From assembly GCA_964016885.1 (NCBI GenBank), contig OZ024742.1, forward strand, positions 370,140,001 to 370,204,000: a DNA stretch of 64,000 bases, in the 5' to 3' direction. Shown piece after piece: positions 15,732-53,081 of the stretch. The position numbers were made by a program, and so were the translations under genes. Under the pieces are notes generated by a model. That model ran no database searches, had not been told where the DNA came from, and saw only the letters and a program-made list of their open reading frames with translations. The stretch is from Eledone cirrhosa (taxonomy: Eukaryota). Every line of letters begins with the position of its first letter. Position 1 is the stretch's first letter.

Positions 15732-16388
15732 ATCCCCCTCTTATTGCTACCTACATGTTTATCTAACTTCATATATATCAATATATGTACCTACATATCT
15801 ATCAATCAATCAATATACCCTTTTAAATATTATCTATCAAACTGAACCAATATCTCTCTCTTTCTAGAGAGAGATATTGATCTAAGCATATATGCATGTC
15901 TAGGAGAGCAGTTATTTTGAATTAAAATTGATGCCGGGTAGACAGGATAACCCATGCCAGACAACCTTTCCAGTGCAGGTGACATGATAAAACATACCCA
16001 ATCCATGCTGTCAAGTGATTGCTGATAGGAAGAGCATCCAACAACAACCTGCTACAAAACCATCACATGCCCAACATATAGTATTAGAACTATTTAGCCC
16101 AACACATAGAAGCATAGAAAAGTAGATAAAATTATCCAGATGATTATATATATATATATATATATATAATTAAGTTAAAAATGTACATCCACATATGTAT
16201 ACTGAAATACTAGTATGCATATGAATACACACACGTATACATATGTAGATGTACCGAGTTTTTCACTGGTCACTTTACTGTGAGTGTCCAGCTATTCTGT
16301 ATGTAAACACACAGACAAACCGGTTTTTAGAGTCATACTGGTTTTTGAGGAAACACCTTTCCTCTATTCTCCAGAAAGCCAGACAAGG

Positions 16389-16433
16389 AATATTGAACTA
16401 GTTTCGATGTTGTTACATCTCATCAGCAATATT
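16389..16433 (-). ncRNA. Minimal type I hammerhead ribozyme
   Basis: Minus strand: AATATTG CTGATGA GATGT-AACA-ACATC GAAA C-TA-G TT CAATATT. Full core, stem I 7 bp, stem II 5 bp, palindromic minimal stem III (ACTAGT), GUU cleavage triplet. Confidence 0.85.
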
Positions 16434-16679
16434 TACCTATCTTCCGGCCTTTCTAGAGAATCGTAAAAGCACATATCGTTATATGCTTTTTCTATGAAAA
16501 TTAGTAGTGGGCAGACTAATTTGCATAGAGCGTGAGTACGTACCGGTTCAACGGAGACGATAACAACAAATAACGAAACGAAATTACGAGGGTATAAGAT
16601 ACCACTAACTTTTAAAAATTTAGTCTTAACCATACAGTATGATATATTAATTTTATACTGACCGTATCAAAAACATTTC

Positions 16680-16769
16680 ATCTCTCGGACAGATTTTAGA
16701 CTCAATCTGTTTCGCTCTGAAAAATTGTGTTTGTAACAGATAATCTGTAGGCTATCATCAGCGAGAGAT
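16680..16769 (-). ncRNA. Type I hammerhead ribozyme (mirror copy)
   Basis: Reverse complement of 16852-16941. Confidence 0.75.
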
Positions 16770-16851
16770 AGATCAAATGAAACAAAACACCTCTAACAGC
16801 AATTTGAGGACCAAAGATATGTTCCTCGTGGTATTTTGTTTCATTTGATCT

Positions 16852-16941
16852 ATCTCTCGCTGATGATAGCCTACAGATTATCTGTTACAAACACAATTTT
16901 TCAGAGCGAAACAGATTGAGTCTAAAATCTGTCCGAGAGAT
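16852..16941 (+). ncRNA. Type I hammerhead ribozyme with 41-nt stem II domain
   Basis: ATCTCTCG CTGATGA [16867-16907] GAAA CAGATT-gagtctaa-AATCTG TC CGAGAGAT; predicted GUC cleavage after 16933. Confidence 0.75.
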
Positions 16942-17060
16942 GAAATGTTTTTGATACGGTCAGTATAAAATTAATATATCATACTGTATGGTTAAGACTA
17001 AATTTTTAAAAGTTAGTGGTATCCTATACCCTCGTAATTTTAGACACAAAATTTACTGTG

Positions 17061-17105
<45 letters not shown>

Positions 17106-17107
17106 AA

Positions 17108-17280
17108 GAGTCAGGGCCCGATGGCTGAGCTCTTGCCTTTACATTCTGAGTTCAAATCTTGCTGAGGTTAAATTTGCCTTTCATCCTTACAGGGGTTGTT
17201 AAAATAAAGTACCAGTAACGTACTGGTTTGATTTAATCCCCCATAATTGTTGGCTTTGTGCCTAAAATCAGAAACCATTC
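17108..17280 (+). mobile_element. SINE fragment (family A)
   Basis: ctgagttcaaatc...ttgcctttcatcctt...aaaataaagtaccagt...ttgtgcctaaaatcagaaacc. Confidence 0.7.
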
Positions 17281-17364
17281 TAAGTAATTGTCAACATGTT
17301 TTTAAAAACAATTTATCCAAAATATTGTAAATTCAGAGTACCATATATATTCGAGGTATTATAA

Positions 17365-17394
17365 AACCTGGGCAATGCCGGATACAGCTTCTAG
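17365..17394 (+). mobile_element. Helitron 3' terminus
   Basis: cctgggcaatgccggatacagcttCTAG|T, similar to the ends at 2924 and 26637. Confidence 0.5.
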
Positions 17395-18016
17395 TATATA
17401 TATTTATATATATAGATATTCATGTATTAATCTAGCAATATCAATATGTACATCTGTATAAATATATATCCATACATGAATCTGTCAATATGCCTATGTA
17501 TAGATTTAGCTGGACATATATGTCAGTGTGTACTCCCTCCTAGATATTACTATAGCCACCACACACCATGTGTTTCAATAATTATACCTATGTACCTACC
17601 TAGAAATTATGTTCATGTAACTATATACAATTTATTCAAACCAGTCACATACTTATGTATGTACATACATACACACACACAAACACCCCCCACACACCTA
17701 CACACATACCAACACCCATACAAACACCCTACACACATACATAGATAGACATACAAACAGAAGAGAGCAATTGTTATTTAGCAAGCCTCAAGTGAACAAA
17801 GAGTGGAAGATATAACAAGATATAGAGATTATTTACAAACAACAGTGATTTAGTCTATTGTGTAAAGAAGGAATGATGGAGACAGATGCTTCAGACAATG
17901 GCTAACATTTTACAATAGACTTTCTACAAGTAAGAGATTCTGGCAGCATTCATAGGCAACACAATCTCTAAACTTCATTTCTAACTAAACATATTTACAA
18001 CTATCTACTATGTATA

Positions 18017-18390
18017 GGCACATGGCTTAGTGGTTAGAGCATTGGGCTTGCAATCGAAAGGTTGCGAGTTCAATCTCAAACCGGGTGATGTGTTGTTTCC
18101 TTGAGCAAGACACTTTATTTCACGTTACCCCAGTTTACTCAGCTGTAGAATTGAGATGATAGGACTGGGGTCCCTATCATTAAATCACCCAAGACACCAA
18201 CAAGATATACCTTGGAGGAGGCCAGCTAAACCTGCATAGGTGTGAGCTGTCACACACACACACTATCTATACAGTATGTGAGTGTGTGTGGGGGAGGGTG
18301 TTATGAGGGGCCCTTCAGCTGGGTCTTGTAAGCATGTGATGACATGTCCAGCCCTTGTTAGCAGGGAAATCAGATATTAAATGATGATGG
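18017..18390 (+). mobile_element. tRNA-derived SINE (family B) with RTE-like tail
   Basis: A box tggcttagtgg, B box gagttcaatc, body ccttgagcaagacactt; first ~165 bp match 24839-25000; ends ttaaatgatgatg. Confidence 0.75.
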
Positions 18391-22198: not shown

Positions 22199-23859
22199 CA
22201 TCATCATCATCATCGTTCAACGTCTATCTTCCACGCTTGCATGGGTTTGGACGGGAGTTTTCCCACTTGAGGCAAGATTGGTTGTCTTGCTCATATAGGA
22301 CTGTCTGGCAGGTTTTCTACGGCTGGATGCCCTTCCTAACACCAACCACGTTTACAGTGTGGACTGGGAGGTTTTTACCGTGTTACCTACACGGCCACAT
22401 TACAGCGTGGACTGTGTGTTTTTTTTCGTGACACCTACACGACCTCATTTATTTCGGACTGGATGTTGTGGTACCAACATAACTTTACATCGAAAGGGGT
22501 GGTGTGGATGGGGTGTGGGACGGGGGTATATTTTTGTTAGATGTGCCTACTTACTGTAGGTTTCGCTTTGTACTTAGGCAAGGCGGGTCTTCTGTATTAC
22601 TGTGTAGCGCCAAAGATCTCGGTCCAGTGACATTGTCTTGGAGAGGTGTAAGTGTGTGAGGTCGGAATTTATCAAGTCGTCCCAGGTTTTTCTGGGTCTG
22701 CCTACTCCATGGCTACCGTCTATTTTTAACGCCCTGCACTTTTTTTATACAGCTGTCATCTTTCATGCGCATCACATGACCATACCAACGTAGTCTTCTC
22801 TCGAGTAAACAACATCTGATTCCTCTTATTCCTAATTTCTCCCTTAGTTCATTTATGCTTTGCCGTTCACGTATATTACTATTACACATCCAACGGAGCA
22901 TGCAAACTTCGTTCCTCTCCAGTCTGCGTATATCCTCTGCACACAATGCCCAAGTCTCACTGCCATGTAACATTGCTGTTCGTATGCAGGCATCGTACAG
23001 CCTGCCTTTCATTTTTACAGAGAACCCTTTAGCGGCCAATAGTGGTATACGCTCTCTGAACTTTTTTCATCTCGTTCTGACTCTAGCTACTATACTTTCA
23101 GAGCACCCTCCACCACTGCTGATTTTGTCACCCAGGTAACGGAAGCTGTCCACTATTTCTATAGAACCATCTGTGCAATGGAATGAGCTAGTATTCTGTG
23201 GGCACTTGCTGCTACTTATTGCACCTGAGCACCAGCCACATATAAAATTTATATTCTTAGTTAGCTTACCTGTGATTCCACTATATTTTATGCACCCATA
23301 CTTTGCATTTGGGACATAAAATGGAGTTTCTACCTACTCCTTTCCTACACACTGAGCATGGCCATTTCCCAGATGGGACCAGTGCCCTATTTTCCTTCCT
23401 ACAAACTAGAACTTTAGTCTTAGACAGGTTAATTTTAAGGCCTTTTGATTCTAGGCCATGCTTCCATGTTTGGAATTTCTTCTCTAGTTCAGCCATTGAT
23501 TCAGCTATGAGCGTTAGATCGTCTGCGTATAGGAGTTCCCATGGGCAGCCGGTCTTGAACTCCACTGTTATAGCCTGAAGGGCAATAATAAATAGTAGGG
23601 GGCTAAGGACGGAGCCCTGATGAATACCAACTTTTACGCTAAACTCTTCACTATATTCGTTGTTAATTCTAACCTTGCTGACTGTTTCTTTATACATGGC
23701 TTGTAAAGCTCTCACAAGCCATTCATCAACACCTAGTTTTCTAAGGGCCCACCAGATAATCGAGCGGGGTACTCTGTCAAAGGCTTTCTCCAAGTCAACA
23801 AAAGCTAAGTATAGGGGTTTACTCTTAGCTAGGTACTTCTCCTGTAGTTGTCGTACAAT
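22199..23859 (-). mobile_element. 5'-truncated RTE-clade LINE with 3' UTR and (GAT)n tail
   Basis: RT motifs AFVDLEKAFDRVPR, QGSVLSPLLF, LYADDL, FRYLG; C-terminal LHGSETW, RRLRWYGHVMR, GRPRKTW. Confidence 0.93.
22574..23859 (-). pseudogene. Disrupted RTE reverse transcriptase, C-terminal half
   Basis: Frameshifts near 23283 and 22740 and an in-frame stop near 23068; Cys/His-rich insert CSVC..CPKC..H..CGWC between RT motifs. Confidence 0.88.
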
Positions 23860-23925
23860 ACAAAGGCATTCCAACCAGGACCATTACATCTTATTTCATT
23901 TATAGTGTATCTTGGGCAATGGACC

Positions 23926-27318: not shown

Positions 27319-27397
27319 AAGATCAATGTCAATGTCTGGTTGGAACTGATGCATTGATTTCTAGAGGACCAACAGGGCAGGATTCACTGGGGTTAGG
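27319..27397 (+). other. Candidate exon running into the first satellite unit
   Basis: ttgcttccactctgttctag| acceptor; phase-1 frame reads (E)DQCQCLVGTDALISRGPTGQDSLGLG; donor AGG|gtaggg. Confidence 0.25.
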
Positions 27398-30300
27398 GTA
27401 GGGTCTGAAGAGATGTACACCACATGAGGGATTGACTGGGATTAGGGTAGGGTCTGAAGAGATGTACACCACATGAGGGATTGACTGGAGTTAGGGTAGG
27501 GTCTGAAGAGATGTACACCACATGAGGGATTGACTGGGGTTAGGGTAAGGTCTGAAAAGATGTACACAACATGAGGGATTGACTGGGGTTAGGGTAGGGT
27601 CTGAAGAGATGTACACCACATGAGGGATTGATTGGGGTTAGGGTAGGGTCTGAAGAGATGTACAACACATGTGGGATTGACTGGGGTTAGGGTAAGGTCT
27701 GAAGAGATGTACAACACATGAGGGATTGACTGGGGTTAGGGTAGGGTCTGAAGAGATGTACACCACATGAGGGATTGACTAGGGTTAGGGTAGGGTCTGA
27801 AGAGATGTACAACACATGAGGGATTGACTGGGGTTAGGGTAGGGTCTGAAGAGATGTACACGACATGAGGGATTGACTGGGGTTAGGGTAGGGTCTGAAG
27901 AGATGTACACAACATGAGGGATTGACTGGAGTTAGGGTAGGGTCTGAAGAGATGTACAACACATGAGGGATTGACTGGGGTTAGGGTAGGGTCTGAAGAG
28001 ATGTACACGACATGAGGGATTGACTGGGGTTAGGGTAGGGTCTGAAGAGATGTACAACACATGAGGGATTGACTGGGGTTAGGGTAGGGTCTGAAGAGAT
28101 GTACACGACATGAGGGATTGACTGGAGTTAGGGTAGGGTCTGAAGAGATGTACACCACATGAGGGATTGACTGGGGTTAGTGTAGGGTCTGAAGAGATGT
28201 ACACGACATGAGGGATTGACTGGAGTTAGGGTAGGGTCTGAAGAGATGTACACGACATGAGGGATTGACTGGGGTTAGGGTAGGGTCTGAAGAGATGTAC
28301 AACACATGAGGGATTGACTGGGGTTAGGGTAGGGTCTGAAGAGATGTACACCACATGAGGGATTGACTAGGTTAGGGTAGGGTCTGAAGAGATGTACACG
28401 ACATGAGGGATTGACTAGGTTAGGGTAGGGTCTGAAGAGATGTACACGACATGAGGGATTGACTGGGGTTAGGGTAGGGTCTGAAGAGATGTACAACACA
28501 TGAGGGATTGACTGGGGTTAGGGTAGGGTCTGAAGAGATGTACACGACATGAGGGATTGACTGGGTTAGGGTAGGGTCTGAAGAGATGTACACAACATGA
28601 GGGATTGACTGGGTTAGGGTAGGGTCTGAAGAGATGTACACAACATGAGGGATTGACTGGGGTTAGGGTAGGGTCTGAAGAGATGTACACCACATGAGGG
28701 ATTGACTGGGGTTAGGGTAGGGTCTGAAGAGATGTACACGACATGAGGGATTGACTGGGTTAGGGTAGGGTCTGAAGAGATGTACACAACATGAGGGATT
28801 GACTGGGTTAGGGTAGGGTCTGAAGAGATGTACACAACATGAGGGATTGACTGGGGTTAGGGTAGGGTCTGAAGAGATGTACACCACATGAGGGATTGAC
28901 TGGGGTTAGGGTAGGGTCTGAAGAGATGTACACCACATGAGGGATTGACTGGGGTTAGGGTAGGGTCTGAAGAGATGTACACAACATGAGGGATTGACTG
29001 GGGTTAGGGTAGGGTCTGAAGAGATGTACACCACATGAGGGATTGACTGGGGTTAGGGTAGGGTCTGAAGAGATGTACACAACATGAGGGATTGACTGGG
29101 TTAGGGTAGGGTCTGAAGAGATGTACACAACATGAGGCATTGACTGGGTTAGGGTAGGGTCTGAAGAGATGTACACCACATGAGGGATTGACTGGGGTTA
29201 GGGTAGGGTCTGAAGAGATGTACACCACATGAGGGATTGACTGGGGTTAGGGTAGGGTCTGAAGAGATGTACAACACATGAGGGATTGACTGGGGTTAGT
29301 GTAGGGTCTGAAGAGATGTACACCGCATGAGGGATTGACTGGGGTTAGGGTAAGGTCTGAAGAGATGTACACCACATGAGGGATTGACTGGGGTTAGGGT
29401 AGGGTCTGAAGAGATGTACACCACATGAGGGATTGACTGGAGTTAGGGTAGGGTCTGAAGAGATGTACACCACATGAGGGATTGACTGGGGTTAGGGTAG
29501 GGTCTGAAGAGATGTACACCACATGAGGGATTGACTGGGGTTAGGGTAGGGTCTGAAGAGATGTACACCGCATGAGGGATTGACTGGGGTTAGTGTAGGG
29601 TCTGAAGAGATGTACACAACATGAGGGATTGACTGGGGTTAGGGTAGGGTCTGAAGAGATGTACACAACATGAGGGATTGACTGGGTTAGGGTAGGGTCT
29701 GAAGAGATGTACACCACATGAGGGATTGACTGGGGTTAGGGTAGGGTCTGAAGAGATGTACACCACATGAGGGATTGACTGGGGTTAGGGTAGGGTCTGA
29801 AGAGATGTACAACACATGAGGGATTGACTGGGGTTAGTGTAGGGTCTGAAGAGATGTACACCGCATGAAGGATTGACTGGGGTTAGGGTAAGGTCTGAAG
29901 AGATGTACACCACATGAGGGATTGACTGGGTTAGGGTAGGGTCTGAAGAGATGTACACCACATGAGGGATTGACTGGGGTTAGGGTAGGGTCTGAAGAGA
30001 TGTACACCACATGAGGGATTGACTGGGGTTAGGGTAGGGTCTGAAGAGATGTACAACACATGAGGGATTGACTGGGGTTAGTGTAGGGTCTGAAGAGATG
30101 TACACCGCATGAGGGATTGACTGGGGTTAGGGTAAGGTCTGAAGAGATGTACACCACATGAGGGATTGACTGGGGTTAGGGTAGGGTCTGAAGAGATGTA
30201 CACCACATGAGGGATTGACTGGAGTTAGGGTAGGGTCTGAAGAGATGTACACAACATGAGGGATTGACTGGGTTAGGGTAGGGTCTGAAGAGATGTACAC

Positions 30301-33300
30301 CACATGAGGGATTGACTGGGGTTAGTGTAGGGTCTGAAGAGATGTACACCGCATGAGGGATTGACTGGAGTTAGGGTAGGGTCTGAAGAGATGTACACCA
30401 CATGAGGGATTGACTGGGGTTAGTGTAGGGTCTGAAGAGATGTACACAGCATGAGGGATTGACTGGGGTTAGGGTAGGGTCTGAAGAGATGTACACAGCA
30501 TGAGGGATTGACTGGGGTTAGGGTAAGGTCTGAAGAGATGTACACAACATGAGGGATTGACTGGGTTAGGGTAGGGTCTGAAGAGATGTACACAACATGA
30601 GGGATTGACTGGGGTTAGGGTAAGGTCTGAAGAGATGTACACAGCATGAGGGATTGACTGGGGTTAGGGTAGGGTCTGAAGAGATGTACACAGCATGAGG
30701 GATTGACTGGGGTTAGGGTAGGGTCTGAAGAGATGTACACCACATGAGGGATTGACTGGGTTAGGGTAGGGTCTGAAGAGATGTACACAACATGAGGGAT
30801 TGACTGGGGTTAGGGTAGGGTCTGAAGAGATGTACACAACATGAGGGATTGACTGGGTTAGGGTAGGGTCTGAAGAGATGTACACAACATGAGGGATTGA
30901 CTGGGGTTAGGGTAAGGTCTGAAGAGATGTACACAGCATGAGGGATTGACTGGGGTTAGGGTAGGGTCTGAAGAGATGTACACAGCATGAGGGATTGACT
31001 GGGGTTAGGGTAGGGTCTGAAGAGATGTACACCACATGAGGGATTGACTGGGTTAGGGTAGGGTCTGAAGAGATGTACACAACATGAGGGATTGACTGGG
31101 GTTAGGGTAAGGTCTGAAGAGATGTACACAACATGAGGGATTGACTGGGTTAGGGTAGGGTCTGAAGAGATGTACACAACATGAGGGATTGACTGGGGTT
31201 AGGGTAAGGTCTGAAGAGATGTACACAGCATGAGGGATTGACTGGGGTTAGGGTAGGGTCTGAAGAGATGTACACAACATGAGGGATTGACTGGGGTTAG
31301 GGTAAGGTCTGAAGAGATGTACACAACATGAGGGATTGACTGGGGTTAGGGTAGGGTCTGAAGAGATGTACACAGCATGAGGGATTGACTGGGGCTAGGG
31401 TAGGGTCTGAAGAGATGTACACAGCATGAGGGATTGACTGGGGTTAGGGTAGGGTCTGAAGAGATGTACACCACATGAGGGAGTGACTGGGGTTAGGGTA
31501 GGGTCTGAAGAGATGTACACCACATGTGGGATTGACTGGGGTTAGGGTAGGGTCTGAAGAGATGTACACCACATGAGGGATTGACTGGGGTTAGGGTAAG
31601 GTCTGAAGAGATGTACAACACATGAGGGATTGACTGGGGTTAGGGTAGGGTCTGAAGAGATGTACACAACATGAGGGATTGACTGGGTTAGGGTAGGGTC
31701 TGAAGAGATGTACACAACATGAGGGATTGACTGGGGTTAGGGTAGGGTCTGAAGAGATGTACACAACATGAGGGATTGACTGGGTTAGGGTAGGGTCTGA
31801 AGAGATGTACACAGCATGAGGGATTGACTGGGGTTAGGGTAGGGTCTGAAGAGATGTACACAGCATGAGGGATTGACTGGAGTTAGGGTAGGGTCTGAAG
31901 AGATGTACACGACATGAGGGATTGACTGGGGTTAGGGTAGGGTCTGAAGAGATGTACACAACATGAGGGATTGACTGGGGTTAGGGTAGGGTCTGAAGAG
32001 ATGTACACAACATGAGGGATTGACTGGGGTTAGGGTAAGGTCTGAAGAGATGTACACCACATGAGGGATTGACTGGGGTTAGGGTAGGGTCTGAAGAGAT
32101 GTACACCGCATGAGGGATTGACTGGGGTTAGGGTAGGGTCTGAAGAGATGTACACAGCATGAGGGATTGACTGGGGCTAGGGTAGGGTCTGAAGAGATGT
32201 ACACAGCATGAGGGATTGACTGGGGTTAGGGTAGGGTCTGAAGAGATGTACACCACATGAGGGAGTGACTGGGGTTAGGGTAGGGTCTGAAGAGATGTAC
32301 ACCACATGTGGGATTGACTGGGGTTAGGGTAGGGTCTGAAGAGATGTACACCACATGAGGGATTGACTGGGGTTAGGGTAAGGTCTGAAGAGATGTACAA
32401 CACATGAGGGATTGACTGGGGTTAGGGTAGGGTCTGAAGAGATGTACACAACATGAGGGATTGACTGGGTTAGGGTAGGGTCTGAAGAGATGTACACAAC
32501 ATGAGGGATTGACTGGGGTTAGGGTAGGGTCTGAAGAGATGTACACAACATGAGGGATTGACTGGGTTAGGGTAGGGTCTGAAGAGATGTACACAGCATG
32601 AGGGATTGACTGGGGTTAGGGTAGGGTCTGAAGAGATGTACACAGCATGAGGGATTGACTGGAGTTAGGGTAGGGTCTGAAGAGATGTACACGACATGAG
32701 GGATTGACTGGGGTTAGGGTAGGGTCTGAAGAGATGTACACAACATGAGGGATTGACTGGGGTTAGGGTAGGGTCTGAAGAGATGTACACAACATGAGGG
32801 ATTGACTGGGGTTAGGGTAAGGTCTGAAGAGATGTACACCACATGAGGGATTGACTGGGGTTAGGGTAGGGTCTGAAGAGATGTACACCGCATGAGGGAT
32901 TGACTGGGGTTAGGGTAGGGCCTGAAGAGATGTACACAACATGAGGGATTGACTGGGGTTAGGGTAGGGTCTGAAGAGATGTACACAACATGAGGGATTG
33001 ACTAGGGTTAGGGTAGGGTCTGAAGAGATGTACACAGCATGAGGGATTGACTGGGGTTAGGGTAGGGCCTGAAGAGATGTACACAACATGAGGGATTGAC
33101 TAGGGTTAGGGTAGGGTCTGAAGTGATGTACACAGCATGAGGGATTGACTGGGGCTAGGGTAGGGTCTGAAGAGATGTACACAGCATGTGGGATTGACTG
33201 GGGTTAGGGTAGGGTCTGAAGAGATGTACACAACATGAGGGATTGACTGGGGTTAGGGTAGGGTCTGAAGAGATGTACACCACATGAGGGATTGACTGGG

Positions 33301-36300
33301 GTTAGGGTAGGGTCTGAAGAGATGTACACCACATGAGGGATTGACTGGAGTTAGGGTAGGGTCTGAAGAGATGTACACCACATGAGGGATTGACTGGGGT
33401 TAGGGTAGGGTCTGAAGAGATGTACACCACATGAGGGATTGACTGGGGTTAGGGTAGGGCCTGAAGAGATGTACACCACATGAGGGATTGACTGGAGTTA
33501 GGGTAGGGTCTGAAGAGATGTACACCACATGAGGGATTGACTGGGGTTAGGGTAGGGTCTGAAGAGATGTACACCACATGAGGGATTGACTGGGGTTAGG
33601 GTAGGGTCTGAAGAGATGTACACCACATGAGGGATTGACTGGAGTTAGGGTAAGGTCTGAAGAGATGTACACAACATGAGGGATTGACTGGAGTTAGGGT
33701 AAGGTCTGAAGAGATGTACACAACATGAGGGATTGACTGGAGTTAGGGTAGGGCCTGAAGAGATGTACACCACATGAGGGATTGACTGGAGTTAGGGTAG
33801 GGTCTGAAGAGATGTACACCACATGAGGGATTGACTGGGGTTAGGGTAGGGTCTGAAGAGATGTACACCACATGAGGGATTGACTGGGGTTAGGGTAGGG
33901 TCTGAAGAGATGTACACCACATGAGGGATTGACTGGGGTTAGGGTAAGGTCTGAAGAGATGTACACCACATGTGGGATTGACTGGGGTTAGGGTAGGGTC
34001 TGAAGAGATGTACACGACATGAGGGATTGACTGGAGTTAGGGTAAGGTCTGAAGAGATGTACACCACATGTGGGATTGACTGGGGTTAGGGTAGGGTCTG
34101 AAGAGATGTACACGACATGTGGGATTGACTGGGGTGAGGGTAGGGTCTGAAGAGATGTACACGACATGAGGGATTGACTGGAGTTAGGGTAAGGTCTGAA
34201 GAGATGTACACCACATGTGGGATTGACTGGGGTTAGGGTAGGGTCTGAAGACATGTACACAACATGTGGGATTGACTGGGGTTAGGGTAGGGTCTGAAGA
34301 GATGTACACGACATGAGGGATTGACTGGGGTTAGGGTAGGGTCTGAAGAGATGTACACGACATGAGGGATTGACTGGGGTTAGGGTAGGGTCTGAAGAGA
34401 TGTACACCGCATGAGGGATTGACTGGGGTTAGGGTAGGGTCTGAAGAGATGTACACAGCATGAGGGATTGACTGGGGTTAGGGTAGGGTCTGAAGAGATG
34501 TACACAACATGAGGGATTGACTAGGGTTAGGGTAGGGTCTGAAGAGATGTACACAGCATGAGGGATTGACTGGGGTTAGGGTAGGGCCTGAAGAGATGTA
34601 CACAACATGAGGGATTGACTAGGGTTAGGGTAGGGTCTGAAGAGATGTACACAGCATGAGGGATTGACTGGGGCTAGGGTAGGGTCTGAAGAGATGTACA
34701 CAGCATGAGGGATTGACTGGGGTTAGGGTAGGGTCTGAAGAGTTGTACACAGCATGAGGGATTGACTGGGGTTAGGGTAAGGTCTGAAGAGATGTACACC
34801 ACATGTGGGATTGACTGGGGTTAGGGTAGGGTCTGAAGAGATGTACACGACATGAGGGATTGACTGGAGTTAGGGTAGGGTCTGAAGAGATGTACACCAC
34901 ATGAGGGATTGACTGGAGTTAGGGTAAGGTATGAAGAGATGTACACCACATGTGGGATTGACTGGGGTTAGGGTAGGGTCTGAAGAGATGTACACGACAT
35001 GAGGGATTGACTGGGGTTAGGGTAGGGTCTGAAGAGATGTACACCACATGTGGGATTGACTGGGGTTAGGGTAGGGTCTGAAGAGATGTACACGACATGA
35101 GGGATTGACTGGGGTTAGGGTAGGGTCTGAAGAGATGTACACCACATGTGGGATTGACTGGGGTTAGGGTAGGGTCTGAAGAGATGTACACGACATGAGG
35201 GATTGACTGGGGTTAGGGTAGGGTCTGAAGAGATGTACACGTCATGAGGGATTGACTGGAGTTAGGGTAGGGTCTGAAGAGATGTACACGACATGAGGGA
35301 TTGACTGGGGTTAGGGTAGGGCGTGAAAAGATGTACACGACATGAGGGATTGACTGGAGTTAGGGTAGGGTCTGAAGAGATGTACACAACATGAGGGATT
35401 GACTGGGATTAGGGTAGGGCGTGAAAAGATGTACACGACATGAGGGATTGACTGGAGTTAGGGTAGGGTCTGAAGAGATGTACACAACATGAGGGATTGA
35501 CTGGGGTTAGGGTAGAGTCTGAAGAGATGTACACCACATGAGGGATTGACTGGGGTTAGGGTAGAGTCTGAAGAGATGTACACCACATGAGGGATTGACT
35601 GGGGTTAGGGTAGGGTCTGAAGAGATGTACACCACATGAGGGATTGACTGGGGTTAGGGTAAGGTCTGAAGAGATGTACACCACATGAGGGATTGACTGG
35701 GGTTAGGGTAGGGTCTGAAGAGATGTACACCACATGAGGGATTGACTGGGGTTAGGGTAGGGTCTGAAGAGATGTACACCACATGAGGGATTGACTGGGG
35801 TTAGGGTAGAGTCTGAAGAGATGTACACCACATGAGGGATTGACAGGGGTTAGGGTAGAGTCTGAAGAGATGTACACCACATGAGGGATTGACTGGGGTT
35901 AGGGTAGGGTCTGAAGAGATGTACAACACATGAGGGATTGACTGGGGTTAGGGTAGGGTCTGAAGAGATGTACACCACATGAGGGATTGACTGGGGTTAG
36001 GGTAGGGTCTGAAGAGATGTACACCACATGAGGGATTGACTGGAGTTAGGGTAAGGTCTGAAGAGATGTACACCACATGAGGGATTGACTGGGGTTAGGG
36101 TAGGGTCTGAAGAGATGTACACCACATGAGGGATTGACTGGGGTTAGGGTAGGGCCTGAAGAGATGTACACCACATGAGGGATTGACTGGAGTTAGGGTA
36201 GGGTCCGAAGAGATGTACACCACATGAGGGATTGACTGGGGTTAGGGTAGGGTCTGAAGAGATGTACACCACATGAGGGATTGACTGGGGTTAGGGTAGG

Positions 36301-39300
36301 GTCTGAAGAGATGTACACCACATGAGGGATTGACTGGAGTTAGGGTAAGGTCTGAAGAGATGTACACAACATGAGGGATTGACTGGAGTTAGGGTAAGGT
36401 CTGAAGAGATGTACACAACATGAGGGATTGACTGGAGTTAGGGTAGGGCCTGAAGAGATGTACACCACATGAGGGATTGACTGGAGTTAGGGTAGGGTCT
36501 GAAGAGATGTACACCACATGAGGGATTGACTGGGGTTAGGGTAGGGTCTGAAGAGATGTACACCACATGAGGGATTGACTGGGGTTAGGGTAGGGTCTGA
36601 AGAGATGTACACCACATGAGGGATTGACTGGGGTTAGGGTAAGGTCTGAAGAGATGTACACCACATGTGGGATTGACTGGGGTTAGGGTAGGGTCTGAAG
36701 AGATGTACACGACATGAGGGATTGACTGGAGTTAGGGTAAGGTCTGAAGAGATGTACACGACATGAGGGATTGACTGGAGTTAGGGTAAGGTCTGAAGAG
36801 ATGTACACCACATGTGGGATTGACTGGGGTTAGGGTAGGGTCTGAAGACATGTACACAACATGTGGGATTGACTGGGGTTAGGGTAGGGTCTGAAGAGAT
36901 GTACACGACATGAGGGATTGACTGGGGTTAGGGTAGTGTCTGAAGAGATGTACACGACATGAGGGATTGACTGGGGTTAGGGTAGGGTCTGAAGAGATGT
37001 ACACGACATGAGGGATTGACTGGGGTTAGGGTAGGGTCTGAAGAGATGTACACAGCATGAGGGATTGACTGGGGTTAGGGTAGGGTCTGAAGAGATGTAC
37101 ACAACATGAGGGATTGACTAGGGTTAGGGTAGGGTCTGAAGAGATGTACACAGCATGAGGGATTGACTGGGGTTAGGGTAGGGTCTGAAGAGATGTACAC
37201 AACATGAGGGATTGACTAGGGTTAGGGTAGGGTCTGAAGAGATGTACACAGCATGAGGGATTGACTGGGGTTAGGGTAGGGTCTGAAGAGATGTACACAG
37301 CATGAGGGATTGACTGGGGTTAGGGTAGGGTCTGAAGAGTTGTACACAGCATGAGGGATTGACTGGGGTTAGGGTAAGGTCTGAAGAGATGTACACCACA
37401 TGTGGGATTGACTGGGGTTAGGGTAGGGTCTGAAGAGATGTACACGACATGAGGGATTGACTGGGGTTAGGGTAAGGTCTGAAGAGATGTACACCACATG
37501 TGGGATTGACTGGGGTTAGGGTAGGGTCTGAAGAGATGTACACGACATGAGGGATTGACTGGGGTTAGGGTAGGGTCTGAAGAGATGTACACGACATGAG
37601 GGATTGACTGGAGTTAGGGTAGGGTCTGAAGAGATGTACACCACATGAGGGATTGACTGGAGTTAGGGTAAGGTATGAAGAGATGTACACCACATGTGGG
37701 ATTGACTGGGGTTAGGGTAGGGTCTGAAGAGATGTACACGACATGAGGGATTGACTGGGGTTAGGGTAGGGTCTGAAGAGATGTACACCACATGTGGGAT
37801 TGACTGGGGTTAGGGTAGGGTCTGAAGAGATGTACACGACATGAGGGATTGACTGGGGTTAGGGTAGGGTCTGAAGAGATGTACACCACATGTGGGATTG
37901 ACTGGGGTTAGGGTAGGGTCTGAAGAGATGTACACGACATGAGGGATTGACTGGGGTTAGGGTAGGGTCTGAAGAGATGTACACGTCATGAGGGATTGAC
38001 TGGAGTTAGGGTAGGGTCTGAAGAGATGTACACGACATGAGGGATTGACTGGGGTTAGGGTAGGGCGTGAAAAGATGTACACGACATGAGGGATTGACTG
38101 GAGTTAGGGTAGGGTCTGAAGAGATGTACACAACATGAGGGATTGACTGGGATTAGGGTAGGGCGTGAAAAGATGTACACGACATGAGGGATTGACTGGA
38201 GTTAGGGTAGGGTCTGAAGAGATGTACACAACATGAGGGATTGACTGGGGTTAGGGTAGAGTCTGAAGAGATGTACACCACATGAGGGATTGACTGGGGT
38301 TAGGGTAGAGTCTGAAGAGATGTACACCACATGAGGGATTGACTGGGGTTAGGGTAGAGTCTGAAGAGATGTACACCACATGAGGGATTGACTGGGGTTA
38401 GGGTAAGGTCTGAAGAGATGTACACCACATGAGGGATTGACTGGGGTTAGGGTAGGGTCTGAAGAGATGTACACCACATGAGGGATTGACTGGGGTTAGG
38501 GTAGGGTCTGAAGAGATGTACACCACATGAGGGATTGACTGGGGTTAGGGTAGAGTCTGAAGAGATGTACACCACATGAGGGATTGACTGGGGTTAGGGT
38601 AGAGTCTGAAGAGATGTACACCACATGAGGGATTGACTGGGGTTAGGGTAGAGTCTGAAGAGATGTACACCACATGAGGGATTGACTGGGGTTAGGGTAG
38701 GGTCTGAAGAGATGTACAACACATGAGGGATTGACTGGGGTTAGGGTAGGGTCTGAAGAGATGTACACCACATGAGGGATTGACTGGGGTTAGGGTAGGG
38801 TCTGAAGAGATGTACACCACATGAGGGATTGACTGGAGTTAGGGTAAGGTCTGAAGAGATGTACACCACATGAGGGATTGACTGGGGTTAGGGTAGGGTC
38901 TGAAGAGATGTACACCACATGAGGGATTGACTGGGGTTAGGGTAGGGTCTGAAGAGACGTACAACACATGAGGGATTGACTGGGGTTAGGGTAGGGTCTG
39001 AAGAGATGTACACCACATGAGGGATTGACTGGGGTTAGGGTAGGGTCTGAAGAGATGTACACCACATGAGGGATTGACTGGGGTTAGGTTAAGGTCTGAA
39101 GAGATGTACACCACATGAGGGATTGACTGGGGTTAGGGTAAGGTCTGAAGAGATGTACACCACATGAGGGATTGACTGGAGTTAGGGTAGGGTCTGAAGA
39201 GATGTACACCACATGAGGGATTGACTGGGGTTAGGGTAAGGTCTGAAGAGATGTACACCACATGAGGGATTGACTGGGGTTAGGGTAGGGTCTGAAGAGA

Positions 39301-39503
39301 TGTACACCACATGAGGGATTGACTGGGATTAGGGTAGGGTCTGAAGAGATGTACACCACATGAGGGATTGACTGGAGTTAGGGTAGGGTCTGAAGAGATG
39401 TACACCACATGAGGGAGTGACTGGGGTTAGGGTAGGGTCTGAAGAGATGTACACAACATGAGGGATTGACTGGGGTTAGGGTAGGGTCTGAAGAGATGTA
39501 CAT
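27380..39503. repeat. 49-bp satellite, ~248 copies
   Basis: gggattgactggggttagggtagggtctgaagagatgtacaccacatga, with some 48-bp variants. Confidence 0.98.
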
Positions 39504-46562: not shown

Positions 46563-49500
46563 TACATTAGAGAGGGAAGACAAACATACATTAGAGAGGT
46601 AAGACAAACATACATTAGAGAGGTAAGACAAACATACATTAGAGAGGTAAGACAAACATACATTAGAGAGATAAGACAAACATACATTAGAGAGATAAGA
46701 CAAACATACATTAGAGAGATAAGACAAACATACATTAGAGAGGGAATACAAACATACATTAGAGAGGGAAGACAAACATACATTAGAGAGGGCAGACAAA
46801 CATACATTAGAGAGGGAAGACAACCATACATTAGAGAGGGAATATAAACATACATTAGAGAGGGAAGACAAACATACATTAGAGAGGGAAGACAAACATA
46901 CATTAGAGAGGGAAGACAAACATACATTAGAGAGGTAAGACAAACATACATTAGAGAGGTAAGACAAACATACATTAGAGAGATAAGACAAACATACATT
47001 AGAGAGATAAGACAAACATACATTAGATAGATAAGACAAACATACATTAGAGAGGGAATACAAACATACATTAGAGAGGGAAGACAAACATACATTAGAG
47101 AGGGAAGACAAACATACATTAGAGAGGGCAGACAAACATACATTAGAGAGGGAAGACAACCATACATTAGAGAGGGAATATAAACATACATTAGAGAGGG
47201 AAGACAAACATACATTAGAGAGGGAAGACAAACATACATTATAGAGGGAAGACAAACATACATTAGAGAGGGAAGACAAACATACATTAGAGAGGGAAGA
47301 CAAACATACATTATAGAGGGAAGACAAACATACATTAGAGAGGGAAGACAAACATACATTAGAGAGGGAAGACAAACATACATTAGAGAGGGAAGACAAA
47401 CATACATTAGAGAGGGAAGACAAACATACATTAGAGAGGGAAGACAAACATACATTAGAGAGGGAAGACAAACATACATTAGAGAGGGAAGACAAACATA
47501 CATTAGAGAGGGAAGATAAACATACATTAGAGAGGGAAGATAAACATACATTAGAGAGGGAAGATAAACATACATTAGAGAGGGAAGATAAACATACATT
47601 AGAGAGGGAAGACAAACATACATTAGAGAGGGAAGACAAACATACATTAGAGAGGGAAGACAAACATACATTAGAGAGGGAAGATAAACATACATTAGAC
47701 AGGGAAGATAAACATACATTAGAGAGGGAAGACAAACATACATTAGAGAGGGAAGACAAACATACATTAGAGAGGGAAGACAAACATACATTAGAGAGGG
47801 AAGACAAACATACATTAGAGAGGGAAGACAAACATACATTAGAATGGGAAGACAAACATACATTAGAGAGGGAAGACAAACATACATTAGAGAGGGAAGA
47901 CAAACATACATTAGAGAGGAAATATAAACATACATTAGAGAGGGAAGACAAACATACATTAGAGAGGGAAGACAAACATACATTAGAGAGGGAAGACAAA
48001 CATACATTAGAGAGGGAAGACAAACATACATTAGAGAGGGAATACAAACATACATTAGAGAGGGAAGGCAAACATACATTAGAGAGGGAAGACAAACATA
48101 CATTAGAGAGGGAAGACAAACATACATTAGAGAGGGAAGACAAACATACTTTAGAGAGGGAAGACAAACATACATTAGAGATGGAAGACAAACATACATT
48201 AGAGATGGAAGACAAACATACATTAGAGAGGGAATACAAACATACATTAGAGAGGGAAGACAAACATACATTAGAGAGGGAAGACAAACATACATTAGAG
48301 AGGGAAGACAAACATACATTAGAGAGGGAAGACAAACATACATTAGAAAGGGAAGACAAACATACATTAGAGAGGGAAGATAAACATACATTAGAGAGGG
48401 GAGATAAACATACATTAGAGAGGGAATATAAACATACATTAGAGAGGGGAGATAAACATACATTAGAGAGGGAAGACAAACATACATTAGAGAGGGAAGA
48501 TAAACATACATTAGAGAGGGAAGATAAATATACATTAGAGAGGGGAGACAAACATACTTTAGAGAGGGAAGACAAACATACATTAGAGATGGAAGACAAA
48601 CATACATTAGAGATGGAAGACAAACATACATTAGAGAGGGAAGACAAACATACATTAGAGAGGGAAGACAAACAAACATGAGAGAGGGAAGACAAACATA
48701 CATTAGAGAGGGAAGACAAACATACATTAGAGAGGGAAGACAAACATACATTAGAGAGGGAATACAAACATACATTAGAGAGGGAAGACAAACATACATT
48801 AGAGAGGGAAGACAAACATACATTAGAGAGGGAAGACAACCATACATTAGAGAGGGAATATAAACATACATTAGAGAGGGAAGACAAACATACATTAGAG
48901 AGGGAAGACAAACATACATTATAGAGGGAAGACAAACATTAGAGAGGGAAGACAAACATACATTAGAGAGGGAATACAAACATACAATAGAAAGGGAAGA
49001 CAAACATACATTAGAGAGGGAATACAAACATACATTAGAAAGGGAAGACAAACATACATTAGAGAGGGAAGACAAACATACATTAGAGAGGGAAGACAAA
49101 CATACATTAAAGAGGGAAGACAAACATACATTAGAGAGGGAAGATAAACATACATTAGAGAGGGAATATAAACATACATTAGAGAGGGAAGACAAACATA
49201 CATTAGAGAGGGAAGACAAACATACATTAGAGAGGGAAGACAAACATACATTAGAGAGAGAAGACAAACATACATTAGAGAGAGAAGACAAACATACATT
49301 AGAGAGGGAAGATAAACATACATTAGAGAGGGAAGACAAACATACATTAGAGAGAGAAGACAAACATACATTAGAGAGAGAAGACAAACATACATTAGAG
49401 AGGGAAGATAAACATACATTAGAGAGGGAAGACAAACATACATTAGAGAGGGAAGACAAACATACATTAGAGAGGGAAGACAAACATACATTAGAGAGGG

Positions 49501-52500
49501 AAGACAAACATACATTAGAGAGGGAAGACAAACATACATTAGAGAGGGAAGATAAACATACATTAGAGAGGGAAGATAAACATACATAAGAGAGGGAAGA
49601 CAAACATACATTAGAGAGGGAAGACAAACATACATTAGAGAGGGAAGACAACATACATTAGAGAGGGAATATAAACATACATTAGAGAGGGAATATAAAC
49701 ATACATAAGAGAGGGAAGACAAACATACATTAGAGAGGGAAGACACACCTACATTAGAGAGGGAAGACAAACATACATTAGAGAGGGAAGACAAACATAC
49801 ATTAGAGAGGTAAGACAAACATACATTAGAGAGGGAAGACAAACATACATTAGAGAGGGAAGACAAACATACATTAGAGAGGGAAGATAAACATACATTA
49901 GAGAGGGAAGATAAACATACATTAGAGAGGGAAGATAAACATACATTAGAGAGGGGAGACAAACATACTTTAGAGAGGGAAGATAAACATACATTAGAGA
50001 GGGAAGATAAACATACATTAGAGAGGGGAGATAAACATACATTAGAGAGGGGAGATAAACATACATTAGAGAGGGGAGATAAACATACATTAGAGAGGGG
50101 AGATAAACATACATTAGAGAGGGGAGATAAACATACATTAGAGAGGGGAGATAAACATACATTAGAGAGGGAAGATAAACATACATTACAGAGGGAAGAT
50201 AAACATACATTACAGAGGGAAGATAAACATACATTAGAGAGGGGAGATAAACATACATTAGAGAGGGGAGATAAACATACATTAGAGAGGGGAGATAAAC
50301 ATACATTAGAGAGGGAAGATAAACATACATTAGAGAGGGAAGATAAACATACATTAGATAGGGAAGATAAACATACATTAGATAGGGAAGATAAACATAC
50401 ATTAGAGAGGGAAGATAAACATACATTAGAGAGGGAAGATAAACATACATTAGAGAGGGAAGACAAACATACATTAGAGAGGGAAGACAAACATACATTA
50501 GAGAGGGAAGACAAACATACATTAGAGAGGGAATACAAACATACATTAGAAAGGGAAGACAAACATACATTAGAGAGGGAAGATAAACATACATTAGAGA
50601 GGGAAGATAAACATACATTAGAGAGGGAAGACAAACATACATTAGAGAGGGGAGACAACCATACATTAGAGAGGGAAGACAAACATACATTAGAGAGGGA
50701 AGATAAACATACATTAGAGAAGGAAGATAAACATACATTAGAGAGGGAAGATAAACATACATTAGAGAGAGGAGACAAACATACTTTAGAGAGGGAAGAC
50801 AAACATACATTAGAGAGGGAAGACAAACATACATTAGAGAGGGAAGACAAACAAATATGAGAGAGGGAAGACAAACATACATTAGAGAGGGAAGAGAAAC
50901 ATACATTAGAGAGGGAAGAGAAACATACATTAGAGAGGGAAGAGAAACATACATTAGAGAGGGAAGAGAAACATACATTAGAGAGGGAAGAGAAACATAC
51001 ATTAGAGAGGGAAGAGAAAAATACATTAGAGAGGGAAGACAAATATATATTAGAGAGGGAAGATAAACATACATTAGAGAGGGAAGATAAACATACATTA
51101 GAGAGGGGAGATAAACATACATTAGAGAGGGAAGATAAACATACATTAGAGAGGGAAGATAAACATACATTAGAGAGGGAAGACAAACATACTTTAGAGA
51201 GGGAAGATAAACATACATTAGAGAGGGAAGATAAACATACATTAGAGAGGGGAAGATAAACATACATTAGAGAGGGGAGATAAACATACATTAGAGAGGG
51301 GAGATAAAAATACATTAGAGAGGGGAGATAAACATACATTAGAGAGGGAAGATAAACATACATTACAGAGGGAAGATAAACATACATTACAGAGGGAAGA
51401 TAAACATACATTAGAGAGGGGAGATAAACATACATTAGAGAGGGGAGATAAACATACATTAGAGAGGGGAGATAAACATACATTAGAGAGGGAAGATAAA
51501 CATACATTAGAGAGGGAAGATAAACATACATTAGAGAGGGAAGATAAACATACATTAGAGAGGGAAGATAAACATACATTAGAGAGGGAAGACAAACATA
51601 CATTAGAGAGGGAAGACAAACATACATTAGAGAGGGAAGACAAACATACATTAGAGAGGGAATACAAACATACATTAGAAAGGGAAGACAAACATACATT
51701 AGAGAGGGAAGATAAACATACATTAGAGAGGGAAGATAAACATACATTAGAGAGGGAAGACAAACATACATTAGAGAGGGGAGACAACCATACATTAGAG
51801 AGGGAAGACAAACATACATTAGAGAGGGAAGATAAACATACATTAGAGAAGGAAGATAAACATACATTAGAGAGGGAAGATAAACATACATTAGAGAGAG
51901 GAGACAAACATACTTTAGAGAGGGAAGACAAACATACATTAGAGAGGGAAGACAAACATACATTAGAGAGGGAAGACAAACAAATATGAGAGAGGGAAGA
52001 CAAACATACATTAGAGAGGGGAGATAAACATACATTAGAGAGGGGAGATAAACATACATTAGAGAGGGGAGATAAACATACATTAGAGAGGGAAGATAAA
52101 CATACATTAGAGAGGGAAGATAAACATACATTAGAGAGGGAAGATAAACATACATTAGAGAGGGAAGATAAACATACATTAGAGAGGGAAGACAAACATA
52201 CATTAGAGAGGGAAGACAAACATACATTAGAGAGGGAAGACAAACATACATTAGAGAGGGAATACAAACATACATTAGAAAGGGAAGACAAACATACATT
52301 AGAGAGGGAAGATAAACATACATTAGAGAGGGAAGATAAACATACATTAGAGAGGGAAGACAAACATACATTAGAGAGGGGAGACAACCATACATTAGAG
52401 AGGGAAGACAAACATACATTAGAGAGGGAAGATAAACATACATTAGAGAAGGAAGATAAACATACATTAGAGAGGGAAGATAAACATACATTAGAGAGAG

Positions 52501-53081
52501 GAGACAAACATACTTTAGAGAGGGAAGACAAACATACATTAGAGAGGGAAGACAAACATACATTAGAGAGGGAAGACAAACAAATATGAGAGAGGGAAGA
52601 CAAACATACATTAGAGAGGGAAGAGAAACATACATTAGAGAGGGAAGAGAAACATACATTAGAGAGGGAAGAGAAACATACATTAGAGAGGGAAGAGAAA
52701 CATACATTAGAGAGGGAAGAGAAACATACATTAGAGAGGGAAGAGAAAAATACATTAGAGAGGGAAGACAAACATACATTAGAGAGGGAAGACAAATATA
52801 TATTAGAGAGGGAAGATAAACATACATTAGAGAGGGAAGATAAACATACATTAGAGAGGGGAGATAAACATACATTAGAGAGGGAAGATAAACATACATT
52901 AGAGAGGGAAGATAAACATACATTAGAGAGGGAAGACAAACATACATTAGAGAGGGAATATAAACATACATTAGAGAGGGAAGACAAACATACTTTAGAG
53001 AGGGAAGACAAACATACATTAGAGAGGGAAGACAAACATACTTTAGAGAGGGAAGACAAACATACATTAGAGAGGGAAGAC
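46563..53081. repeat. 24-bp satellite, ~270 copies
   Basis: acattagagagggaagacaaacat; explains the SSLSNVCL and PSLMYVCL ORFs. Confidence 0.98.

Follow-up and report, generated by a model that had tools for sequence, protein, structure and literature searches.

Metazoan non-LTR retrozymes are described with units of 150-450 bp (Cervera and de la Pena 2020, PMC7229834), and retrozyme units of 51-972 bp are reported by Li, Clavereau and Pollet 2026 (10.64898/2026.07.22.740005). Arkhipova et al. 2013 (PMC3846280) describe an insertion of one PLE in another, a microhomology 5' junction that lacks target duplication, head-to-head inversions, and a tail carried by one pLTR; the account of Craig et al. 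2021 (PMC8557442) gives the same PLE layout together with a (TA)n bias. Cervera and de la Pena 2014 (PMC4209133) describe hammerheads that face each other on opposite strands at distances of 100-700 bp, and also the presence of an extra base in front of helix II.

Here we describe two repeat families, A and B, that meet at one locus of the window (the whole 64,000-nt stretch of Eledone cirrhosa DNA that was analysed). Like non-LTR retrozymes, both consist of non-coding, low-GC tandem units with one putative type I hammerhead each, occur as dispersed monomers and long arrays, and have a mobilisation by PLEs proposed for them. Unlike non-LTR retrozymes, their units (457-468 nt) lie at the upper edge of the range described in PMC7229834, the window holds one truncated unit per family and not a homotypic tandem, and no homology to an autonomous pLTR appeared among 45 GIY-YIG loci. 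Their insertions further resemble those of PLEs as described in PMC3846280 and PMC8557442, sharing 5' truncation, partial tandems, a head-to-head copy, a tail at one end, (TA)n targets, a microhomology 5' junction and terminal-repeat palindromes, but A and B have no ORF and their tails measure ~73-80 nt, against 30-40 bp in the PLEs described there. The classes are known ones, and families A and B themselves are new; a literature search found no description of either family or of the architecture of A, and the supplements of PMC4209133, PMC7229834 and PMC3088659 may show similar variants.

The locus is quite probably a one-off join of two unrelated hammerhead-bearing tandem-repeat families, likely formed when B inserted beside an inverted-repeat A insertion and A's end was lost at a 6-nt microhomology, or else through a deletion that later brought two neighbouring insertions together (Table 1). 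What was observed directly is the family to which each part belongs, how long the units are, that they form tandem arrays and head-to-head inversions, that they end in (TA)n, and that the junction is unique. The locus itself, as ordinary debris of two ribozyme repeats with a common target, carries little weight.

Table 1. Features of the A-B locus, in window coordinates
Feature	Position	Strand	Evidence
(TA)n stretch bordering family B at its 3' end; likely target of the insertion	16145..16167	.	sequence
Family B, ~420 nt of the 466-nt tandem unit, without tail and without inverted partner	16168..16586	-	match to L006; L027 tandem copies
Family B hammerhead, putative canonical type I	16373..16444	-	Rfam HH9; helix II A-U/U-A exchange
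6-nt microhomology, A unit position ~420 to B unit position ~1	16581..16586	.	locus mapping; unique in genome
Family A main copy, unit positions 167-420 of ~468; 5'-truncated, without the last 48 nt and tail	16581..16832	-	locus mapping
Family A putative hammerhead, C17 16688	16680..16769	-	close-copy comparison (n=26); alignment
Upstream segment complementary to loop II, pairing predicted	16771..16790	-	complementarity tests
Inverted copy of family A, truncated at 5', with unit positions 208-468; stands head-to-head to the main copy	16830..17088	+	locus mapping
Family A hammerhead in mirror orientation, C17 16933; the stem II change recurs at 16905	16852..16941	+	inverted repeat
(TA)n stretch bordering the inverted A copy at its 3' end	17070..17100	.	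sequence

The inverted repeat has arms of 211 nt each (16581-16791 and 16830-17040) spaced by 38 nt, and sequence comparison bore out the arm length and the number of mismatches given in the initial annotation of this DNA; the two mismatches fall at 16597/17024 and 16788/16833. Also as described there, stem I has 8 bp and stem III 7 bp in both arms, the site is GUC, and CUGAUGA is followed by the extra UA and a long stem II domain. GAAA comes after this domain, and C17 falls at 16688 (minus) and 16933 (plus). The 38-nt "spacer" of that description has the correct length but is no true spacer: the minus-strand A copy continues to 16832 and overlaps the inverted copy by 3 nt. Since the right arm extends to ~17070-17088, the left arm is the shortened one. 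The tail-less end of the inverted A copy lies in (TA)n, and the last ~18 nt of its alignment are a TA run. An acaga/tctgt hairpin had been pointed out in the stem II domain; it is present but varies between family A subfamilies, and the conserved loop feature is instead a complementarity to the upstream segment. A second minus-strand hammerhead was rightly recognised (it matches Rfam Hammerhead_HH9) but wrongly called minimal, as its helix II has 4 bp and its helix I is bulged and extended, and the predicted cuts at 16688 and 16396 do lie 292 nt apart. The Rfam scan that had been proposed as a check matched the family B motif and missed both arm hammerheads; its miRNA and snoRNA matches in the window were discarded, being weak and due to hairpins and TA-rich stretches. 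The segment 16168-17088 is not overlapped by any ORF of >=100 aa, and GC is 0.33 across 16001-18000. Altogether, the locus consists of a single truncated B unit and, on each strand, a single truncated A unit, which is not the composition of an active retrozyme copy.

We then surveyed the paralogs by a genome search with minus 16830-16370 as the query, which gave 59 matches from the best 40 of 1,359 candidates. Besides the window's own full-length match, all 58 cover either query positions 1-251 or 244-461 and never both, and the same search yielded no tandem or dispersed copies of the 292-nt piece. In the 3.0-Gb genome, a 28-nt junction pattern and a 24-nt junction pattern allowing up to two mismatches each had one match, the window. 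A contig of run X4, from another organism, follows B to 16586 and then continues in B's own sequence. The initial annotation had read the locus as a non-autonomous PLE/retrozyme-like unit with two dissimilar ribozymes. Its choice of class stands (non-coding, hammerhead-bearing repeats with Penelope-type anatomy), while the single unit does not, since the paralogs split at the junction and none of 148 other loci (109 A, 39 B) contains both families; the five window-overlapping loci were left out of this set, its loci of ~3 kb each overlap, and its B loci represent ~15 distinct sites. The genome survey for the two-ribozyme layout, which the annotation had itself called for, thus assigns the two motifs to separate families, a warning that adjoining dissimilar hammerheads need a paralog survey before being named one element.

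Genome-wide, the A core pattern has 422 exact matches and the B core pattern 7,754, against 0 for each reversed control (3.0-Gb genome), so neither motif is a chance occurrence; the 422 A cores are a lower bound, because the pattern omits the window's own variant and the A' subfamily. The A (~468 nt) and B (466 nt, from tandem copies in locus L027) units show no significant similarity (best E 0.097), and each family builds homotypic tandem arrays. Among the 100 matches listed, B arrays reach up to 31 units, often with a divergent partner, and A', a young 457-nt subfamily that is 70% identical to A and whose own matches are 98-100% identical, forms an array of at least 7 units. The window B copy is 100% identical to locus L006 over 419 nt, and 110 of 129 near-full-length B matches (overlapping loci counted) lie at 99-100% identity. 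The window A copy differs from the commonest letter of 26 close copies in 3 of 252 columns, with the changes present in both arms, and a genome search with two of these private variants gave two matches, both the window's own arms. The genome offers two recently active retrozyme families of opposite ribozyme design (dimer-type B, self-contained A), whose near-identical young copies are easy to assay.

Several further observations concern the make-up and distribution of these copies. In many A copies the end of a unit is separated from the following unit or tail by 120-200 nt of an abundant repeat, which accounts for the observed spacings of 593 and 672 nt. We take this repeat to be SINE-like; it occurs in L013 and L048, in other copies (e.g. 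L002:1890-2075) and also at window positions 17136-17288, and is possibly a captured passenger. Some B copies sit in (GAT)n/(ATC)n and not in (TA)n (L156:1190-1770; L027:1000-1035). Unrelated as they are, A and B have near-equal unit lengths (~468 and 466 nt) and tail lengths (~73-80 nt), which may reflect a shared mobilising enzyme. The window B sequence (16168-16586) recurs at ~98-99% identity in contigs of four organisms, whereas A is nearly confined to one; in sequencing runs X4 and X7, B is present and cover over A is zero. The spread of B over four organisms may stem from shared ancestry, horizontal spread or contamination by an abundant repeat, which are indistinguishable here. Eight viral-contig matches to the A core pattern were set aside as chance, none of them having stems I and III.

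The family B ribozyme matches Rfam RF02275 Hammerhead_HH9 at 16444-16373 (minus) with 36.5 bits (E 1.4e-6), below the gathering score of 52. Its core CUGAUGA lies at 16426-16420, the 4-bp helix II is closed by the loop UAACAA, helix I is bulged and extended, and helix III consists of two pairs around UA in the palindrome ACUAGU, of dimer type. Cleavage is predicted at GUU with N17 at 16396, GUU being the site in 93 of the 100 B copies listed. At the second pair of helix II, every one of the 100 copies listed has either A-U or U-A, as do 23 of 24 B cores (15 loci); the identical double change was seen in four sequencing runs. With its core, stems and helix II covariation, family B is, as judged from sequence, a canonical type I hammerhead. 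It shares with RF02275, a type I hammerhead with a weak dimer-type helix III, the 4-bp helix II, the 6-nt loop, the bulged extended helix I and the palindromic helix III, and differs by its score below the gathering value and by GUU, not GUC, in 93/100 copies listed. Weak-helix-III variants from PLEs reportedly cut as dimers, to go by the title of a 2017 study by Lunse and colleagues. The B ribozyme, too, probably needs a second B copy to cut; hammerheads with weak helix III often cut solely as dimers according to PMC7761336. Nested co-folding of B with B gave no dimer helix III, a method that cannot model the dimer fold and decides nothing on B. The min-HHR of PLEs, as described in PMC4209133, has a helix II of 7-8 bp, a helix I of 4-5 bp and an extra base before helix II; we excluded this class for B, in which helix II has 4-5 bp, helix I has 7 bp plus an extension, and the extra base is absent.

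Regarding insertion anatomy, A and B insertions are truncated at the 5' end, form partial tandems, include an inverted copy placed head-to-head, end in (TA)n and are extended on one side. Inversion was found in 40 of 67 other loci tabulated (A, A', B); 28 of these 40 inverted insertions have one tailed end, 3 two tail-less ends, 1 two tails and 8 are unclear. Tails of A and B measure ~73-80 nt, (TA)n borders both composite ends and most other A/B ends inspected, and an arm identity of ~99% also occurs at other A and A' insertions. At the window composite, both outer ends (B 420, A 468) are plain; therefore the part meant to carry A's tail is missing, and losing the middle of two insertions would be expected to leave just such a tail-less composite. 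Another hybrid of this layout was found at L014:1100-2145 (= L062), where an inverted A insertion, its main copy stopping at unit position 429, is followed by a 5'-truncated young A' copy; the overlap at this join is 1-2 nt. MITE-like terminal inverted repeats, considered from L002, were rejected as arm lengths differ from copy to copy, and the locus maps contained no LTR-like layout.

We also examined candidates for an autonomous partner among GIY-YIG profile matches (best 150 of 10,596 candidates scored). The genome contains a 937-aa open frame with RT and C-terminal GIY-YIG, in which RVT_1 scores 28 bits, just below the cut-off of 29.6. Across 45 GIY-YIG loci (30 top and 15 long-frame), no autonomous PLE had terminal sequence in common with A or B, and locus L194 showed a separate B insertion nearby and nothing more; because no autonomous PLE shares the A/B termini in these 45 loci, the mobilising PLE enzyme is one that we only infer. 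In two GIY-YIG loci (L186:8328, L103:1035) there is yet another hammerhead-like motif, the third, which is small and has a minimal helix III. Judged by the comparisons above, A and B are likely non-LTR retrozymes mobilised by Penelope enzymes. By analogy with PLE work and with non-LTR retrozymes (PMC7229834; PMC7761336; 10.64898/2026.07.22.740005), arrays would be transcribed and the hammerhead would cut once per unit, giving ~460-nt monomers able to circularise; a PLE reverse transcriptase with GIY-YIG endonuclease might then copy these monomers in trans into (TA)n runs. The product of such copying would be partial tandems plus an inverted 5'-truncated copy with a ~75-nt tail at one end, and divergent ribozymes at a locus would arise as a by-product of inversion.

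How the two families came together can be weighed against this anatomy. In a template switch, the PLE reverse transcriptase would have copied B RNA from its 3' end, jumped within the B hairpin at the 6-nt microhomology to A RNA, and then produced the inversion, all in one event. PLE template jumps are proposed in the scenarios set out in PMC3846280, the A and B parts are both young, the two families share the use of (TA)n and a similar tail length, and the break in the window B copy falls at the centre of a ~30-bp palindrome carried by the B unit. A single event, however, usually leaves one tailed end (28/40) and the window has none, nor does any other genomic copy with the window's private A variants mark a source, which makes the switch rather unlikely; two-ended tail-less insertions do occur (3/40). 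Were it true, the locus would still be a one-off hybrid, and one enzyme would carry both families. An assembly artefact, namely a fold-back or chimeric read that created the junction or the inverted arm, is very unlikely. The window is largely satellite in a very repeat-rich region, and on 16545-16875 at 98% likeness runs X1, X3, X5 and X23 provide no contig or read spanning either junction, a gap that proves nothing, and the insertion may be polymorphic. Against an artefact, the arm mismatches (which the initial annotation took to argue for real genomic sequence), the 3-nt inversion overlap and the microhomology are typical of real insertions in these families, and run X1 contains the unique left flank (15900-16136) without a single difference. 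The sequencing runs compared showed neither an empty nor an A-only allele. For the favoured join of two separate insertions, the order is undated: the A arms differ at 2/211 positions and B differs from its closest copy at 0/419, values that are not distinguishable.

The functional two-hammerhead, non-autonomous unit of the initial annotation, which would excise and circularise a 292-nt RNA, has in its favour that both motifs lie on one strand at that distance and would leave chemically compatible ends if both sites cut, that 1-2 bp of stem II can suffice in the pseudoknotted hammerheads described in PMC3088659, and that B could pair in trans with other B RNAs. It is nonetheless extremely improbable: the arrangement exists in one copy in 3.0 Gb against thousands of homotypic copies, the piece itself recurs neither in tandem nor dispersed in the paralog search, weak helix III motifs need a dimer in the systems described in PMC7761336 and PMC4209133, and nested co-folding of A with B gave no shared helix. 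Efficient formation of the 292-nt RNA probably does not occur, because the 2-bp palindromic helix III of B probably needs a second B ribozyme and none is present in cis. A transcript starting outside the arms would, from the sequence, fold into a 211-bp hairpin. The A-B composite as a whole is probably inert, because of this hairpin, the dependence of B helix III on a second B ribozyme and a private change in stem II of A.

In the window family A hammerhead, CUGAUGA (16761-16755) is followed by the extra UA. An alignment of 23 copies drawn from several subfamilies shows no change in CUGA or GAAA but a variable N7, and stems I-III are 96-99% paired, stem I showing one two-sided change. With this core, a UH site, three stems and an open stem I, the motif is classed as a predicted type I hammerhead. 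Between A9 and G10.1, 45 of 79 cores have 1 extra base, 22 have 2 and 12 have 3, compared with at most one or two bases there in the known hammerhead alignments presented in PMC10085705. The private change in the window, at 16716/16905, is G>A; G is the letter in 24 of 26 close copies, and the change reduces stem II to two contiguous pairs. The lowest-energy fold of the window A copy is not the hammerhead, while a majority-type A copy and an A' copy, each isolated, do fold into it. The window A ribozyme is not proven dead, because pseudoknotted hammerheads with a stem II of 1-2 bp are reported to be active (PMC3088659). A segment just downstream of the family A ribozyme (alignment columns 138-145, window ~16674-16668, minus) is conserved at 95%, and its neighbours are not.

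Loop II of family A holds GAUUA-UCUGUU-ACAAACAC, which is antiparallel and in register to the 19 nt immediately 5' of stem I; in the window, predicted pairing (minus) joins 16790-16782 with 16734-16727 and 16775-16771 with 16745-16741. In 26 of 27 A copies this duplex was equalled or beaten by <=10 of 200 shuffles, and in 17 of 27 it ranked first among 354 nearby sequence windows; as exceptions among the 27, L131 shows nothing, and in three copies the inverted arm of the copy itself confounds the test. Opposite UU in the 5-bp helix, 96 of the 100 copies listed have purines at both upstream bases, a pattern to be read with the caveat that A/G exchange is also the commonest mutation and that the copies are related, and at the two bases separating the helices all four letters occur. 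Two-sided covariation in the loop II helices amounted to 1 change in 299 cells, with 123 of 500 shuffles reaching the count and 31 of 500 the score, and a search for a doubly changed, compensated variant gave 2 matches, both uncompensated. When the upstream segment was included, nested folding preferred the long helix over the hammerhead in 3/3 copies tried. At its full 19 nt the helix would probably not fit beside stem II, given the 5-nt linker, which leaves two readings, two short pseudoknot helices paired in the active fold or an off-switch.

Compared with the pseudoknotted (Perreault et al. 2011, PMC3088659) and PLE (PMC4209133) hammerheads, A shares the extra bases between A9 and G10.1 and a candidate helix between the stem I side and loop II. 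Where those described there have one such helix, A has two candidates (5 and 8 bp); it also departs from them by its loop II of ~26-32 nt, by a helix III of 7 bp and by 3-nt insertions in 12/79 cores. We tentatively propose, as a possibility somewhat short of probable, that family A represents an undescribed animal-retrozyme hammerhead whose large loop II would wrap an extended stem I via predicted short helices (GAUUA/UAAUC; ACAAACAC/GUGUUUGU), either holding the active fold as a double pseudoknot or zipping into a 19-nt off-switch, with a core that tolerates 1-3 extra bases after CUGAnGA and with cleavage as a monomer. If the loop II pairing is true, it would constitute a new mode of stabilising or regulating hammerhead cleavage, relevant to retrozyme biology and ribozyme engineering.

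Elsewhere in the window, a weak tRNA-like Rfam match (18023-18079; 20.9 bits, E 0.98) is probably chance or SINE-derived. Two short minus-strand frames at 22713-23874 are presumably pieces of a LINE reverse transcriptase. Long satellite arrays occupy 27380-39502 (49-bp unit, 248 copies) and 46563-53081 (24-bp unit, 272 copies).
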